A stretch of 64,000 nt of DNA from a virus (IMGVR_UViG_3300017780_006957:32001-96000); one strand, 5' to 3'. Shown: positions 15,507 through 53,818, counted from the first letter of the stretch. The notes: a model not told the origin generated them from the letters alone. Program-made: numbers and translations.

Positions 15507-15525
15507 TGGAGCGGAATGTCAGAGT
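15507..15525 (-). pseudogene. tRNA 3'-end remnant (Gly-like acceptor strand, ...CTGACATTCCGCTCCA)
   Basis: 3' T-stem strand, acceptor strand and CCA with no matching 5' half; overlaps the endonuclease stop codon. Confidence 0.5.
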
Positions 15526-16175
15526 GAAATATAATATTTAATAAAAGTTATACATTTTTCAAGAAAAATTGGAAAATCATTTTTTTTCTTATAATTTAAA
15601 TCATTAGATGAAATTCTCATTATATTCCAACCATTTTTTATTAAATTTGAATCTCTAATAGCATCTTTTTCTTTGTCGTGCCATTTTATACCATCATATT
15701 CTATATTTATTTTATAATCTGGTAAAGCTATATCGAGATAAATATTATCGACTTTGTACTCTTGTTGTAATTCTGGAAATATCTTTTTTAATTCTTCAAA
15801 TAATATATTTTGCCAATAAGATTTTTTACCAGCACATTTCTTATTTGGATGTTTTTCTGGATTTAATTTAAAAAATTCTTTTTTTGATAAAGACATTTTT
15901 AATTTACTTTCATCGCTTCTTTTTGAACCAAGATTTTTTAAAGATAAAGCTTTTTTTCTTTCAAGAGTCCAACTTTCTTTAAGTTTTTGTTTTCTATCCT
16001 CAGTACAAGGTAAAGTTTTTTTGCCTTTTATTGGAGATATTCTACCAGTTGCTTTTTGACTTCTTATTGAATTAATTTCTTCAGTCCAAATTCTTGAATT
16101 AGCGCAAGATCTAGAACAAAAAATACCACTGCCAAATGTTCCATTATGATCTATATTGCATTTTTTACATTGCAT
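15519..16175 (-). CDS. homing endonuclease-like protein (NUMOD3 plus Vsr/DUF559-like nuclease)
   Basis: FCSRSC zinc motif, RSDESKLKMS repeat, LDIA....INIEYDG..WH, RD..L..GW. Confidence 0.8.
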   Translation of the reverse strand: MQCKKCNIDHNGTFGSGIFCSRSCANSRIWTEEINSIRSQKATGRISPIKGKKTLPCTEDRKQKLKESWTLERKKALSLKNLGSKRSDESKLKMSLSKKEFFKLNPEKHPNKKCAGKKSYWQNILFEELKKIFPELQQEYKVDNIYLDIALPDYKINIEYDGIKWHDKEKDAIRDSNLIKNGWNIMRISSNDLNYKKKNDFPIFLEKCITFIKYYISL

Positions 16176-17139: not shown

Positions 17140-17227
17140 AGGACAGTGCGAGATTCGAACTCGCGGTGAGCTTAACGCCCACTTCAGTTTTCAAGACTGA
17201 CGTATTAATCCACTCTACCAACTGTCC
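17140..17227 (-). tRNA. tRNA-Ser(UGA)
   Basis: GGACAGT/ACTGTCC acceptor, TCAGT-CTTGAAA-ACTGA, long variable arm; CCA not encoded. Confidence 0.9.
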
Positions 17228-17233
17228 GTTTAA

Positions 17234-17359
17234 TTATCCTTGGCCGCGATACTTTTTTCTATAATTTTTTGAATTCTTTAGATGAGAGGTCTTGCTTTTA
17301 GCATGGATTCCCTTGCGCTTCTTAGACTTTACACCGTTTTTTTGGTTCTTCTTGTTCAT
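17234..17359 (-). CDS. small highly basic protein ending KKYRGQG (41 aa)
   Basis: MNKKNQKNGVKSKKRKGIHAKSKTSHLKNSKNYRKKYRGQG; below the ORF-track cutoff. Confidence 0.7.
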   Translation of the reverse strand: MNKKNQKNGVKSKKRKGIHAKSKTSHLKNSKNYRKKYRGQG

Positions 17360-17980
17360 TTATTTATTGTTTAGATAGAATTTTTTTAGCACTACTTTAT
17401 TTAAGCCTCTACGACTTTCGATTTCAGGAATGATTGTTTTACGAATCCAATTTCTTTCATACCTTTGATCTTCGTTGCTCTCATCAATTTGAAGATACTT
17501 GAAAAGATTGTTTTTGTCAACCCAATTTTCAAAATTCTTTTTAATGTTCAAGATGAATGGGCGATAGATAGAAAAAGAATTAAAATCAGTAAATTCTTGA
17601 ATTGGTTTGTGTTCTGGGCAACCTTTTAAAGTATTACTTATATAACTCTCTACAGCGTCTTGTAAATGCTGGCATTGAATAATTGACCCACCCACTTGAG
17701 AAAAGAATTTTAATCTTTCTTTCCTTAGTCCATCTTCAATATTTTTATCAATCTTAATAGAACATTTTTCTGTGATAAGATTAATTTTATAGTCAGAACA
17801 AAATCTTTCGCAAGCCTTTTGCATAAGGTTGTTTTGCGGTCTTTGATTATGATTATAGTGAATAGCTTGAAATTTTTGTCCAGATTTATGAAGAAAATGA
17901 GCGCAAGCTAGACTATCTATACCGCCAGAGATAGCAATACTATAAGTTTTTGGTAGGTATTTTTTATTTATTTTGATCAT
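17360..17980 (-). CDS. tilS: tRNA(Ile)-lysidine synthetase-like protein, PP-loop domain only
   Basis: AISGGIDS PP-loop, HYNH..R, R..FF, QHLQD..E, RP, DESN.....RN.IR. Confidence 0.85.
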   Translation of the reverse strand: MIKINKKYLPKTYSIAISGGIDSLACAHFLHKSGQKFQAIHYNHNQRPQNNLMQKACERFCSDYKINLITEKCSIKIDKNIEDGLRKERLKFFSQVGGSIIQCQHLQDAVESYISNTLKGCPEHKPIQEFTDFNSFSIYRPFILNIKKNFENWVDKNNLFKYLQIDESNEDQRYERNWIRKTIIPEIESRRGLNKVVLKKFYLNNK

Positions 17981-18028
17981 TTAATTAAAAGATTATGATA
18001 TTTATCATAATCAGTGTATAATAGTTAT

Positions 18029-18388
18029 ATGCAAAAATGTAATCATTGTCAAGCGAATTTATCTGGTAATCAAACTAAATGGTGTTCGGATAAATGCAAA
18101 CATTCTGTCGCAAATGCGAAACATCAAAATTATCAAGCTCAACAGGAAAGAGGCAAGTCTAGAAAAAGAGATTTAATTAAAATGAAAGGCGGCGGATGTG
18201 AAATTTGTGGTTATAAAAAATCTACAGCCGCTCTATGTTTCCATCATTTAGACCCTTCAATAAAAAAATTTGAATTAGATATAAGAAGCTTATCAAATAG
18301 AAGACTAGATTATATCTTGGATGAAGCCTCAAAATGTCAATTACTTTGCTCTAATTGTCATATGGAAGTTCATCATGGTTTAGTATAA
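18029..18388 (+). CDS. HNH endonuclease
   Basis: CEICGY...LCFHHLDP...KCQLLCSNCHMEVH; GTGTAT 15 nt upstream. Confidence 0.85.
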   Translation: MQKCNHCQANLSGNQTKWCSDKCKHSVANAKHQNYQAQQERGKSRKRDLIKMKGGGCEICGYKKSTAALCFHHLDPSIKKFELDIRSLSNRRLDYILDEASKCQLLCSNCHMEVHHGLV

Positions 18389-18396
18389 AATTAAAG

Positions 18397-18486
18397 TACA
18401 AAAGGTGAGACTCGAACTCACAAAGGACTTTCACGTCCATAACGGTTTATGAAACCGCGCCCTTAACCAATTCGGGTCACTTTTGC
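18397..18486 (-). tRNA. tRNA with CAU anticodon (Ile2/Met) and long variable arm
   Basis: GCAAAAG/CTTTTGT, GCGGT-TTCATAA-ACCGT, V-arm GGAC-GTGAAA-GTCC, T-arm GTGAG-TTCGAGT-CTCAC; no CCA. Confidence 0.85.
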
Positions 18487-18499
18487 ATTATTTAGAAAG

Positions 18500-18577
18500 T
18501 GGTAGTCACGGTGGAATTCGAATCCACACTGTAATGATTTTAAGTCATTTGTCTCCTACCAGTTGGACTACGTGACC
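18500..18577 (-). tRNA. tRNA-Leu(UAA), short variable loop
   Basis: GGTCACG/CGTGACT, AATGA-CTTAAAA-TCATT, encoded CCA. Confidence 0.9.
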
Positions 18578-20043: not shown

Positions 20044-20130
20044 TGGAGCTAAAGGTGAGATTCGAACTCACGGTGCGCTTTCGCATCTCGATTACAAATC
20101 GAGTCCTTTCGACCACTGAGGGACTTTAGC
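20044..20130 (-). tRNA. tRNA-Thr(UGU) with long variable arm
   Basis: GCTAAAG/CTTTAGC, CTCGA-TTTGTAA-TCGAG, V-arm TGCG-AAAG-CGCA, encoded CCA. Confidence 0.85.
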
Positions 20131-20841: not shown

Positions 20842-20955
20842 TGCAGAAGAGATTGGATTCGAACCAATATTGTACCATACTGCCCTTGGGCATCCAAGGA
20901 ATCGAACCTTAACGAAATAACCGTCGCTATTGCATTGCCGTTATGCTACTCTTCT
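20842..20955 (-). ncRNA. tRNA-like RNA E with expanded anticodon region containing a second T-arm
   Basis: AGAAGAG/CUCUUCU acceptor, D-arm GCAU-AACGGCA-AUGC, T-arm AUUGG-UUCGAAU-CCAAU, extra AAGG-UUCGAUU-CCUU. Confidence 0.75.
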
Positions 20956-21856: not shown

Positions 21857-22420
21857 TTATATAAAACTTTTCCACTCTTTTCTAATTTTGGACACCTGAA
21901 GAAAAAGATTAGGAATTACTGGAGCTTTTACTATTTCATTTTTAATATTAAAAAATGGAGAATGATCGGACTTCTTTTGATTGCAGTCAAGACAAGCCAA
22001 AGTCCTATTTTCGTGTTCATCAGTTCCGCCCTTACTTTTTGGTTTGATGTGATCAATAGTAAGATCTGCGATTTTAAATTTCTTTAAACAATACTGGCAA
22101 ATAGAATCATGAATTCTGCTTAATTCCGCCAAAGATAGTTTTTTCTTTTTGGGTTTTTTAAAAAATTTACTGGTTACAATAATAATTGTTGGAATTGGCC
22201 AAGAGCGTTTTGCGCTACGAAGAACGGGCTGATCTTCATGGAACTCCGCATAATCATTCCACTTCTCTATAGAATCAAACAAATTATTGTTTTTATCTAA
22301 AGCGGTGACATTTTGACTTAATAGATGCGCGAAAGCAGCCTTTGCTGTGATGGCAGTGATAGGTTGCCAAGCGTTATTAAGTAAGAGTGTGGTTCTAGTA
22401 TTGCAATCTACGATGTTCAT
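21857..22420 (-). CDS. HNH endonuclease (McrA-like)
   Basis: CQYC...LTIDHIKPKSKGG...N...AC..CN..K. Confidence 0.85.
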   Translation of the reverse strand: MNIVDCNTRTTLLLNNAWQPITAITAKAAFAHLLSQNVTALDKNNNLFDSIEKWNDYAEFHEDQPVLRSAKRSWPIPTIIIVTSKFFKKPKKKKLSLAELSRIHDSICQYCLKKFKIADLTIDHIKPKSKGGTDEHENRTLACLDCNQKKSDHSPFFNIKNEIVKAPVIPNLFLQVSKIRKEWKSFI

Positions 22421-51256: not shown

Positions 51257-53818
51257 TTATTTAAGTTGTGAAAGTTTCATATAGATTTTTTCTTTTAAGA
51301 TATTAATTTTTTCGATAAAGATAATATCATCGCCCTTTGTTCCGTAGATGATAACCATATCACCTTTGACGGGAAGCTTTTTACCAGAATTTACATACTC
51401 AGTCAATCTTTCTTTGTTCGCGCTATCCATAAATAAACCAGATACTGTTCCAAGCTCGTCTTGAAGATCGAGTCTAGCGTATTTATTTCCATTAGCACTC
51501 GTTCTTTTCGTTATGTCAGAAATAGTGCCAACAAATTTAATTTGACCTCTTGGCTCTGCCTGTTTGAGTTCTTGAGACGACATCAAACCACTGCCATCTT
51601 GATCTTTGAAAATTTGCCTAATATTATAAGAGTAACTATAACCCAAAAGTTCTGTTTCAAAAAACCAGTTAGCAAATTTAAAATGTTGCTTGTTCATTTC
51701 ATAAATACCCTTATATGGATCATACTTCTTTTTAAATGTCTCAAATCTTTTTGCAGTAAATAAAGGCTTGTTATCATCTGCTGGCAAAGAGTTAACATGA
51801 TAATCATGGATACATTTTAAAATATCAAAATTATATTTTGGACCAAGCTCAATCATGTTTCTTTTTTCACGGTCACTAAGGACATTGAAGGTTTGTGCTT
51901 CTAGCACTAATCTACAGCGGTCTTTTGCTACGAACGAATCAAGAAGCCCAGCTTGGATCAACGCTGAAAAACAACCAATATTTAAACCAGATTGTTTTGC
52001 GGACGAAAACGCTTCGTATTTATTGGCGAATGATTCTTCTCTGAATTCCAAAAGAGATTCCAAAGATTTGTCCGATACGCCTTTAATGCAGTTTAAACCA
52101 TAGCGGATATCCTTGCCCTCAATTTTAAAATCAATATCTGATTTGTTTAAATCGGGAGGAAGGAGCTTAATGTCAAAAAAAGATAGTTCTTGAGAGATTT
52201 TACGAATCTCATCTAAGGAGTCTGGCTCAAACCTAGCAAATTTCAACAAGCTCAAAAAGAATTCTTGAGGATAATTAAATTTAAGATAAACAGTGATAGC
52301 TGCCAAATTAGCATATGAAATAGAGTGGCTTTTATTAAAGCTATAATTAGCTGAATCTTCCGCAACTTTCCAAAGAACTTCTCCAATTTCAAAATCAAGA
52401 CTCTTTTCTGTAATTTTTTCTGCGATCTTATCTTTCCATGCTGCCATTTGATCAATCTTCTTTTTACCGACAATACGACGAAGCTGTTCTGATTCATCAA
52501 GAGAGAATCCGACCTTTACCGCCATCTTCATTAGCTGCTCTTGATATAAAGGGATGCCGCCTGTATAACTAAGCACATCATCAAAGAATGGATGAACGGA
52601 TTGGAAGTCTCCAGTTCTGACGTAATCTGCATAACGATCTTTGAAATCTAATGCTCCAGGTCTTGCAATAGCGACGACCGCAGAAAGCTCCTCTAAGCTT
52701 CGTGGAGCGATTAGCTTGCACACTTTGAAGTTGGTGTCGGCTTCGATCTGGAAGAGTCCTTGTGGCTGTTCTAAGCAAGCCAAAGCGGCGTAGATAGATG
52801 GGTGTTGAACATCGATATCATCAACGTTGATTCCAATATTTTTACATACAGCATGAACAACTGATAATGTGCGAAGACCAAGAATATCAAACTTAACACT
52901 AAGGCTTGCGACATCATTCATATCATAACCAGAAACCAAAGAATCATCATTAGTTTTTTGTAATGGCATGATATCTTCAACATCATAATAACTAATACAA
53001 ATACCTGATGGATGAACACCAGTATTCTTATTTAGACCTTCAAGTTTTTTTGCAATATCATAAGATTTAGGATATTGATCAGCATATTTTTTGAAAGTTT
53101 CACTCTCTTCGTATGCAATACCAAGCTTTGCGACTTTTCCGAATTTTTTTGGAATTGAATCGCTGATTTCATTAACTTGAGTTTCTGAAAGCTCATCAAC
53201 GATTTTGCCGCACTCTTTGATACAAAGCTTGCCGCTGAGTGTATTCAAAGTAAGAATTTTACAAGTCCTGCCTTTGTATTTTTGATTAATATAATCGATC
53301 ACTTCTGCACGTCGATCATAGGAAATATCATTATCTACGTCAGCAAGAAGTCCGCCATCAAGATAGGTTTCACCATTATGTTCGATCTTTCTCGCACGAC
53401 TTTTAGAAACAAATCGCTCAAAGAATAAATCGTATTGGATAGGATCAATATTAGTTACGCCAATAACATAAAGAACAAGTGATCCTGCCGCAGATCCACG
53501 ACCTGCCCCAGTAGGGATTCCATTCTCTTTGCAATAGTTAAGAATATCCCAGTTAAGAAGAATATAATCAATAAAGCCAAGATCCTCCAAAACAGAAAGT
53601 TCTTCTTTTAGGCGATCATAATATTTTTGGACATTATCTTTCTTATCAATTCCCCTGCCGATAAGACCTTTGTGACAGAGCCTACGAAGAAAGTTGAAAT
53701 TTGACTGATTTTCAGAACATCCTACGTAATCATAATATTTTTTTTCAATTTTGATTTGTGGCAGTTTTACTCCGACAGGAAATGGAGTTTCATATTTTTG
53801 ATAGTTAGAAAAATTCAT
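51257..53818 (-). CDS. dnaE: DNA polymerase III alpha subunit, core without N-terminal PHP
   Basis: GAGRGSAAGSLV, FERF, DVDND, HPSG, KFDILGL, YQEQ, YSFNKSH, C-terminal OB fold. Confidence 0.95.
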   Translation of the reverse strand: MNFSNYQKYETPFPVGVKLPQIKIEKKYYDYVGCSENQSNFNFLRRLCHKGLIGRGIDKKDNVQKYYDRLKEELSVLEDLGFIDYILLNWDILNYCKENGIPTGAGRGSAAGSLVLYVIGVTNIDPIQYDLFFERFVSKSRARKIEHNGETYLDGGLLADVDNDISYDRRAEVIDYINQKYKGRTCKILTLNTLSGKLCIKECGKIVDELSETQVNEISDSIPKKFGKVAKLGIAYEESETFKKYADQYPKSYDIAKKLEGLNKNTGVHPSGICISYYDVEDIMPLQKTNDDSLVSGYDMNDVASLSVKFDILGLRTLSVVHAVCKNIGINVDDIDVQHPSIYAALACLEQPQGLFQIEADTNFKVCKLIAPRSLEELSAVVAIARPGALDFKDRYADYVRTGDFQSVHPFFDDVLSYTGGIPLYQEQLMKMAVKVGFSLDESEQLRRIVGKKKIDQMAAWKDKIAEKITEKSLDFEIGEVLWKVAEDSANYSFNKSHSISYANLAAITVYLKFNYPQEFFLSLLKFARFEPDSLDEIRKISQELSFFDIKLLPPDLNKSDIDFKIEGKDIRYGLNCIKGVSDKSLESLLEFREESFANKYEAFSSAKQSGLNIGCFSALIQAGLLDSFVAKDRCRLVLEAQTFNVLSDREKRNMIELGPKYNFDILKCIHDYHVNSLPADDNKPLFTAKRFETFKKKYDPYKGIYEMNKQHFKFANWFFETELLGYSYSYNIRQIFKDQDGSGLMSSQELKQAEPRGQIKFVGTISDITKRTSANGNKYARLDLQDELGTVSGLFMDSANKERLTEYVNSGKKLPVKGDMVIIYGTKGDDIIFIEKINILKEKIYMKLSQLK

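Follow-up and report, generated by a model that had tools for sequence, protein, structure and literature searches.

The present work describes a transfer RNA (tRNA) gene with a CAU anticodon and an unusually long variable arm, together with a nearby gene for TilS, the enzyme of lysidine synthesis, both located in a 64,000-nucleotide stretch of viral DNA (IMGVR_UViG_3300017780_006957:32001-96000; the whole stretch is hereafter called the window) whose source is a large uncultured phage. Based on comparative sequence analysis, we consider it probable (at roughly 0.78) that the two genes constitute a phage-private, lysidine-dependent tRNA-Ile2/TilS module for the decoding of AUA codons. In E. 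coli, lysidine shifts tRNA-Ile2 from the methionyl-tRNA synthetase (MetRS) and AUG to the isoleucyl-tRNA synthetase (IleRS) and AUA, and in bacteria a long variable arm is tied to the tRNAs for Leu, Ser and Tyr (and Sec). We assign the long-armed tRNA to isoleucine because of its sister tRNAs with UAU and GAU anticodons, its linkage to tilS, the identity of its base pair 3:70 and the behavior of the AUA codons. The features on which this reading is built are:

18397..18486, minus strand: class II-shaped CAU tRNA, 90 nt to A73, proposed to be a lysidine-dependent tRNA-Ile2 (ARAGORN, Rfam, family covariation, chassis table below)
17360..17980, minus strand: predicted TilS of 206 aa, catalytic PP-loop domain only (PF01171, TIGR02432, profile alignment, AlphaFold2 (AF2) model, Foldseek)
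18014..18388, plus strand: HNH homing-type endonuclease gene, antisense, between the tRNA and tilS (phrog_2255, E 1.9e-22)

A first-pass annotation, made from the sequence of the window, had described these same elements: a 90-nt CAU tRNA with a long variable arm and A73, a 206-aa TilS reduced to its catalytic domain, and a single antisense HNH gene separating them. This description was borne out in all its parts, the tRNA by ARAGORN, Rfam and direct inspection, the enzyme by the domain models (with the full-length model failing) and the HNH gene by its family match.

Results

Structure of the CAU tRNA

ARAGORN places a tRNA with a CAT anticodon at 18396-18486 on the minus strand, labelled as Met, and Rfam RF00005 matches 18397-18486 (minus strand), scoring 45.1 bits where the gathering score is 29 (E 1.9e-07); relative to the model, 19 nt are inserted in the variable region, and a single base is added between U8 and the D stem. 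The acceptor stem has 7 bp (GCAAAAG/CUUUUGU), starting with G1.U72, continuing with C2:G71, A3:U70, A4:U69 and A5:U68, and followed by A73; the D loop is AAUUGGUU; the 7-nt anticodon loop, UUCAUAA, presents U33 and A37 and is closed by a stem carrying G27.U43. The variable region is about 20 nt long and folds into a 4-bp stem (GGAC/GUCC) with a 6-nt loop, and CCA is not encoded by the gene. This arm sets the gene apart from a class I tRNA-Ile2, with its variable loop of 4-5 nt, and the anticodon sets it apart from bacterial class II tRNAs, which carry such an arm with Leu, Ser or Tyr anticodons.

Concerning recognition by TilS, U33, C34 and A37 are given in the available text of PMC12069591 as loop determinants, and G27.U43, C4:G69 and C5:G68 as stem determinants confined to the gamma-proteobacteria. 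G27.U43 is present in the window tRNA and in 3/14 members of the family alignment, and the whole 17-nt anticodon stem-loop that includes it is identical in the window tRNA, in a class II relative (L022) and in two class I tRNAs adjacent to tilS (L004 and L023). The single-sequence minimum free energy fold gave no cloverleaf (z -2.19), and covariation was used in its place to establish the structure.

A tRNA body confined to phages

The long-armed CAU tRNAs share a D arm with one extra pair, of the form GUGACC-N-GAAU(U)GGU(U)AA-N'-GGC, and usually a variable arm with the conserved base UAUGG...CCUUUG. When three sequence collections were scanned with the D-arm motif, all 19 matches in viral contigs lay inside tRNA genes (19/19), 31/80 fetched matches in metagenome contigs overlapped a tRNA, and among 185,579 cellular genomes there were 90 matches, with 0/80 of those fetched overlapping a tRNA. 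The body of this tRNA is a phage-only chassis. After pooling and de-duplication, 36 distinct chassis tRNAs were obtained, which are distributed by anticodon, discriminator base (N73) and length to N73 as follows:

CAU: 15 distinct; N73 is A in 14 and C in 1; 89-91 nt
UAU: 4 distinct; N73 is A in 4/4; 85-90 nt
GAU: 2 distinct; N73 is A in 2/2; 87-88 nt
GUU (Asn): 6 distinct; N73 is G in 6/6; 73-88 nt
UGU (Thr): 4 distinct; N73 is U in 4/4; 73-88 nt
GCA (Cys): 3 distinct; N73 is U in 3/3; 73-78 nt
GCU and CGA (Ser): 2 distinct; N73 is G in 2/2; 85 and 87 nt

Throughout these 36 tRNAs the discriminator tracks the amino acid of the anticodon and not the shape of the body, and the long arm is wholly missing from some of the Thr, Asn and Cys versions. 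Since the chassis is reused where the synthetases read the anticodon and the discriminator, the arm is not expected to set the amino acid.

The CAU gene is a tRNA beyond chance. When 14 chassis tRNAs are aligned, 97.6% of the pair cells are paired and both sides have changed in 17/24 pairs, values that none of 500 shuffled alignments reached (0/500), and sliding the partners by 1-3 columns lowers the pairing to 38-46%. The cloverleaf and the variable-arm helix are kept, with compensatory changes in all five helices (helix 1, with 7 pairs, is 100% paired; helix 5, with 5 pairs, 98.6%), as are G18G19, the T-loop consensus and the anticodon loop, and most relatives encode CCA. RNAalifold called the four standard stems unaided; the variable-arm helix, 89% paired when drawn by hand, was not called, because MAFFT did not bring this arm into register.

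Base pair 3:70 bears directly on the choice between isoleucine and methionine. As reported in the accessible part of Silva et al. (PMC1635315), C3:G70 is usual in Met and fMet genes, and G3, A3, C70 or T70 mark Ile(CAT) genes; in the 15 chassis CAU tRNAs this pair is G:C in 12, A:U in 3 and C:G in none.

The phage TilS

The 206-aa open reading frame (ORF) at 17360-17980 (minus strand) matches PF01171 (E 2e-30) and scores 103.6 bits with TIGR02432 (lysidine_TilS_N), above the cut-off of 93.6, and reaches 71.2 bits with the full-length TilS model NF007942, for which the cut-off is 606. A search that took in proteins of 113-361 aa recovered 35 homologues (37-94% identity), all of them 201-230 aa long. 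The family is invariant in the PP-loop motif (SGGIDS, residues 18-23) at S18, G20 and D22, and elsewhere at N43, H44, E82, R86, R89, H105, D108, E111, D166, N169, R176, N177 and R180; its alignment contains no invariant cysteine. Aligned through profile hidden Markov models, the phage family and the enzymes from E. coli, A. aeolicus and G. kaustophilus have in common the motifs SGGxDS, HHL-D, ED-sN and RN--R, and the family profile covers residues 5-202 of 433 in E. coli TilS (1ni5), 26-225 of 317 in A. aeolicus (1wy5) and 13-213 of 464 in G. kaustophilus (3a2k). By this coverage, the phage protein is predicted to be a catalytic domain only, with no C-terminal domain.

The AF2 model (pLDDT 93.5) finds TilS structures at Foldseek ranks 1-6, with a TMq of 0.82 to 1ni5, and TtuA-type thiolases next. 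A TtuA/TtcA-type thiolase was considered as an alternative identity and rejected, given this ranking and the lack of an invariant cysteine in the family. Another candidate that was discarded is the 41-aa basic ORF abutting the tilS stop, which could have been a detached RNA-binding tail of the enzyme: of nine tilS loci it is kept only in L003, with two changes relative to the window, and it does not follow tilS in the eight other relatives.

According to the available portion of PMC11947777, the described TilS enzymes all have a C-terminal part that binds tRNA, made up of one domain in type II and of two in type I. As the phage enzyme appears to be devoid of the domains which read the anticodon stem, the elbow and the acceptor stem, it would have to choose its substrate via the anticodon arm alone or via some other contact; the acceptor stems of the partner tRNAs vary freely in the family alignment.

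Linkage of the CAU tRNA to tilS

A profile search of viral contigs yielded 73 tilS loci, which form 49 clusters at 90% identity, and in 40/49 a tRNA is found within the fetched flanks. The nearest tRNA has a CAU anticodon in 19 of these 40 clusters, against a background share of 37/207 tRNAs in the loci, and a CAU tRNA lies at most 1 kb from tilS in 22/49 clusters, always on the same strand. Most of these partner tRNAs are of ordinary length (75-78 nt), with a long-armed subset of 89-94 nt according to ARAGORN, trailing bases counted.

Co-occurrence of the tRNA and tilS across relatives, which the first-pass annotation had proposed as a check, was indeed observed within the chassis: tilS lies within 2.5 kb of 8/15 distinct CAU versions and of 0/21 versions with other anticodons. 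On two further CAU contigs tilS is farther away (at 4.7 kb in L017, and at the end of the contig in L118). Searches of whole contigs turned up tilS in 0/5 contigs with an Asn, Thr, Cys or Ser version, three of which are at least 90% complete, and in 0/7 once the searchable contigs with UAU and GAU versions are added. A UAU anticodon reads AUA without lysidine.

In one relative (L020), 13 nt separate the end of the long-armed tRNA from tilS and no HNH gene is found at that position, which makes the HNH gene of the window look like an insertion into a tight pair. A different arrangement was seen in L122, L126 and L128, where an 84-nt CAU tRNA (2393-2476), with a D arm that is related yet different and with no tilS within 2.5 kb, stands in tandem with a 92-nt chassis UAU tRNA (2495-2586).

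Behavior of the AUA codons

AUA occurs 20.4 times per 1000 codons, making up 24% of the Ile codons. Its share of the Ile codons is 0-10% in the polymerase, helicase, exonuclease, recombinase and rII genes (11% in the primase) and 30-67% in most virion, tail and neighboring genes, and the A-ending codons GGA, UCA, UUA and ACA are matched by the other tRNAs of the cluster. Codon use in general is bimodal, AUA and UUA being rare in replication genes (the polymerase gene at 51257-53818 has AUA for 1/67 Ile codons) and common in structural and tail genes, as well as in the endonuclease gene at 15519-16175.

The residues found in homologues were compared at 23 AUA sites of a virion protein, the Lon-like protease and TilS (120, 150 and 35 homologues, respectively). 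The frequencies of I, L and V, in this order, are 0.34, 0.24 and 0.17 for the AUA sites, 0.41, 0.16 and 0.17 for the AUU/AUC sites and 0.14, 0.48 and 0.06 for the Leu codons, and the log-likelihood over the 23 AUA sites is -46.4 for Ile, -49.5 for Val, -52.2 for Leu, -58.9 for Met and -80.7 for Ser. In this comparison, which corresponds to another check suggested at the outset, the alignment of AUA codons to conserved residues, the Ile profile fits best and, by these profiles, Ser is excluded and Leu disfavoured, with the AUA sites appearing somewhat intermediate and their Ile signal weaker than that of AUU/AUC. The gene for the alpha subunit of DNA polymerase III has 1 AUA site only and is uninformative.

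Of 323 AUA codons aligned to four close relatives, 240 are unchanged, 26 became AUU or AUC, 26 became Val codons and 7 became UUA, and among the UUA codons 64 became UUG or CUA and 5 became AUA, all these counts being inflated by the near-duplicates L110 and L111. When the ORFs of the window were compared by tblastn with the tilS loci and with the complete relatives G002-G004, the shared genes were too few for a codon test.

Discussion

The proposed module and the points against it

In the mechanism that we propose, the CAU tRNA would be transcribed with the minus-strand tRNA cluster, host enzymes would presumably process it and add CCA, and the 206-aa phage TilS would, as its homology suggests, turn C34 into lysidine; IleRS could then charge the lysidine-bearing tRNA, AUA would be read in late genes, and the module would supply AUA decoding to the AUA-rich structural genes. 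The long arm and the odd D arm would belong to the chassis, which appears to be reused for Ile, Asn, Thr and Cys.

Several observations weigh against this proposal. On the side of the enzyme, deletion of CTD2 from a type I TilS is reported to abolish most of the activity (PMC11947777, in the part available), which makes lysidine synthesis by a TilS that seems to be a catalytic domain only uncertain. On the side of the tRNA, the acceptor-stem determinants of E. coli TilS, C4:G69 and C5:G68, are absent from the window tRNA, and tilS is missing from the 2.5 kb around 7/15 chassis CAU tRNAs, of which some are on short contigs. The codon data are also weaker than they could be: the difference between the I and L frequencies is 0.10 at AUA sites, below the 95% range of random samples of AUU/AUC sites (0.13-0.38) and far above that of the Leu codons (-0.50 to -0.19), and the sites classed as Ile are 14/23 for AUA and 88/111 for AUU/AUC (23/102 for Leu codons). 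AUA tends toward poorly conserved positions, such as those in the Lon-like protease, which may account for the weak signal, as might a partial decoding as Leu. Finally, the charging with Leu of a nematode tRNA that combines a class II body with an Ile anticodon, and the Leu-like features of the window tRNA, both treated below, speak for another amino acid.

Alternative explanations

The first-pass annotation had left two alternatives standing, a private TilS/tRNA-Ile2 pair, conjectured to resist host anticodon nucleases, or a tRNA charged with Leu or Ser that recodes AUA or AUG; the pair as such gains from the tilS linkage, the UAU and GAU sisters, the 3:70 pair and the AUA codons, and the latter is disfavoured. 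In this second alternative, the host leucyl- or seryl-tRNA synthetase (LeuRS or SerRS) would charge the class II body, and AUA (after lysidine formation) or AUG would be partly read as Leu or Ser. In the window tRNA, the class II shape goes together with A73, G18G19, A15 and a U that precedes the T stem, and the E. coli LeuRS determinants are A73, A15:U48, G18G19 and A20a (PMC9976931); by the numbering used, A20a is missing, position 20a being U, although the extra base of the D arm makes this numbering uncertain. A nematode class II tRNA-Ile(UAU) is charged with Leu only in vitro (PMC3333845, available part), UAU is frequent among the allo-tRNAs described in the accessible text of PMC5389517, and Leu is found in homologues more often at AUA sites than at AUU/AUC sites (0.24 and 0.16). 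On the other hand, a discriminator that follows the amino acid of the anticodon in the 36 chassis tRNAs would not be expected of a body that dictates Leu (A73) or Ser (G73), the fits of Ser (-80.7) and Leu (-52.2) at AUA sites are both worse than that of Ile (-46.4), AUA exchanges more with AUU/AUC (26) than with UUA (7), C2:G71 is an anti-determinant for the E. coli SerRS (PMC9976931), and a tRNA that reads AUG with Leu or Ser would have no use for a linked tilS. Taken together, we consider recoding very unlikely.

Quite unlikely, in our view, is also that the gene encodes an elongator tRNA-Met with an extra arm, the phage TilS then acting on another tRNA, such as the tRNA-Ile2 of the host. 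ARAGORN does label the gene as Met, an unmodified CAU anticodon confers Met identity (PMC9976931), no other CAU tRNA was found by ARAGORN in the window, and tilS is missing from the vicinity of the 7/15 chassis CAU tRNAs mentioned above; nevertheless, the C3:G70 pair of Met genes (PMC1635315, available part) is seen in 0/15, UAU and GAU sisters share the chassis, and among the chassis versions tilS is found near CAU only. Moreover, the complete relative G003 has a second CAU tRNA, of ordinary length, besides the class II one linked to tilS, L003 has an initiator-like one, and AUG is not a codon in need of supplement. As for a role outside translation, as a decoy or sponge for host defenses that target tRNAs, or as a gene in decay, phage tRNAs counter such defenses (as described in the accessible parts of PMC10264068 and PMC11464382), the body is unusual and homing endonuclease genes lie alongside. 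These ideas are hard to reconcile with five helices kept by compensatory changes, with the conservation of G18G19, the T-loop consensus and the anticodon loop, with the CCA encoded in most relatives and with a discriminator tuned to the anticodon, and we regard them as highly improbable.

Relation to known systems

The proposed tRNA-Ile2/TilS pair resembles the E. coli-type pair in its CAU anticodon, U33, A37, G27.U43 (in the window copy), A73, non-C:G pair 3:70 and linked PP-loop domain, and differs from it in that the phage tRNA is long-armed, has an extra base pair or base in the D arm and lacks C4:G69 and C5:G68, in that the phage enzyme is without CTD1 and CTD2, and in that the genes are phage-borne and adjacent. 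Both a lysidine-bearing phage tRNA(CAU) and phage TilS genes are already known (PMC13191261 and PMC6892783, in the parts available). The TilS of the Pseudomonas phages PA5oct and MIJ3 is 33% identical to ours over residues 8-200 and, in PA5oct, likewise consists of the catalytic domain only (coding sequence of 612 nt), but, unlike tilS in the window, the PA5oct gene has no annotated tRNA within 3 kb; the available text of PMC6892783 describes the protein as putative and of unknown role and proposes no partner tRNA. In a T4-like vibriophage, a phage-encoded tRNA(CAU) carries k2C34 and decodes AUA, with neither a phage tilS nor a long arm mentioned in the accessible part of that report (PMC13191261).

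Class II bodies with unexpected anticodons have also been described elsewhere. The nematode nev-tRNA-Ile(UAU) has, as the phage tRNA, a class II body and an Ile-box anticodon; this eukaryotic tRNA stems from tRNA-Leu and receives Leu (PMC3333845, available part), whereas in the phage chassis the discriminator tracks the anticodon and AUA behaves in an Ile-like manner. Allo-tRNAs, some of which are phage-borne, likewise combine a long arm with non-Ser/Leu anticodons (PMC5389517, in its accessible text), UAU among others, but have an 8/4 or 9/3 acceptor/T branch; this identity was rejected for the chassis, whose branch is, by covariation, the canonical 7/5. A literature search confined to sources other than subscription journals found no class II-shaped tRNA-Ile2 or Ile tRNA in phages, no phage-only chassis common to Ile, Asn, Thr, Cys and Ser tRNAs, and no consistent pairing of a CAU tRNA with a catalytic-domain-only TilS; the available part of a review of non-canonical tRNAs (PMC7609411) mentions none of the class II tRNA-Ile2, the chassis or the TilS pairing.

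Genomic context

The window (G+C 28-37%) encodes rIIA/rIIB-like proteins, a DnaE-type polymerase, a Lon-like protease and a lambda-J-like tail protein, and one of its virion proteins is common to cyanomyophages. DNA near-identical to the window is found mostly in freshwater metagenomes, and the tRNA/tilS region is missing from the nearest record, a fragment of 27.7 kb (G001). According to ARAGORN, six tRNA genes, all on the minus strand, lie within 16.2-20.3 kb of the window. The features neighboring the tRNA/tilS pair are:

18500..18577, minus strand: tRNA with a UAA (Leu) anticodon, short variable region (class I shape), A73, CCA encoded (ARAGORN; Rfam, 58.6 bits)
17234..17359, minus strand: very basic ORF of 41 aa (36% Lys+Arg), abutting the tilS stop, of uncertain status (ORF list)
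17140..17227, minus strand: tRNA-Ser(UGA), ordinary class II, downstream of tilS (ARAGORN; Rfam, 59.8 bits)
20044..20130, minus strand: class II-shaped tRNA-Thr(UGU), 87 nt, with G1:C72, C2:G71 and U73 (ARAGORN; Rfam, 54.8 bits)

The acceptor and T arms of the tRNA-Thr(UGU) resemble those of the CAU tRNA, its D arm differs, and the same class II-shaped type is present in L008 and L130. The slot of the UAA tRNA holds a tRNA-Lys(UUU) in L003, a relative whose TilS is at 99%, and other Leu-anticodon tRNAs without the arm occur in L026, L027, L036, L054, L063 and G003. A tRNA-like gene at 20844-20955 (minus strand; Rfam, 40.4 bits) has its anticodon arm replaced by about 50 extra bases, which include a second T-arm-like hairpin, and may be a hybrid or broken tRNA.

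Three endonuclease genes (one of DUF559/MTES type and two HNH) stand amid the tRNA genes, at 15519-16175 (minus strand), 18014-18388 (plus strand) and 21857-22420 (minus strand), and the window and L003 differ in the presence or absence of tRNA genes at the endonuclease junctions; an initiator-like tRNA at 4099-4176 of L003 is missing from the window. Among the relatives with tilS, tRNAs with a CUA anticodon (amber suppressor type) are found in G003 (196159-196232), G004 (91899-91973) and L066 (10117-10191), and a transfer-messenger RNA is encoded by several tilS phage contigs (L008, 3468-3848; L045, 11053-11417; L064; L069). The long ORFs of the window are intact under translation table 11.

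Implications

A long-armed body found only in phages serves Ile (with CAU, UAU and GAU anticodons), Asn, Thr and sometimes Cys, with the discriminator tuned to each, and annotation pipelines will mislabel such genes as Met or as recoding tRNAs. What the conserved body is for can only be suggested tentatively: a possible, if doubtful, idea is that it acts as a mark of self, by which the Ile, Asn, Thr and Cys tRNAs of the phage would escape tRNA-cleaving defenses of the host or an attack that the phage itself directs at host tRNAs, or that it offers a hold to phage enzymes such as the domain-poor TilS, with the host synthetases still reading only the anticodon and the discriminator. In any case, the chassis constitutes a natural test of how far a class II core is tolerated by IleRS, by the asparaginyl- and threonyl-tRNA synthetases and by TilS. 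The phage TilS, with about 200 aa, would be a minimal enzyme and bears on how tRNA-Ile2 can be discriminated from tRNA-Met without C-terminal domains, a discrimination which, for type II TilS, is called open in the available part of PMC11947777. Finally, the division of AUA usage between replication and structural genes fits phage tRNAs that serve late translation.

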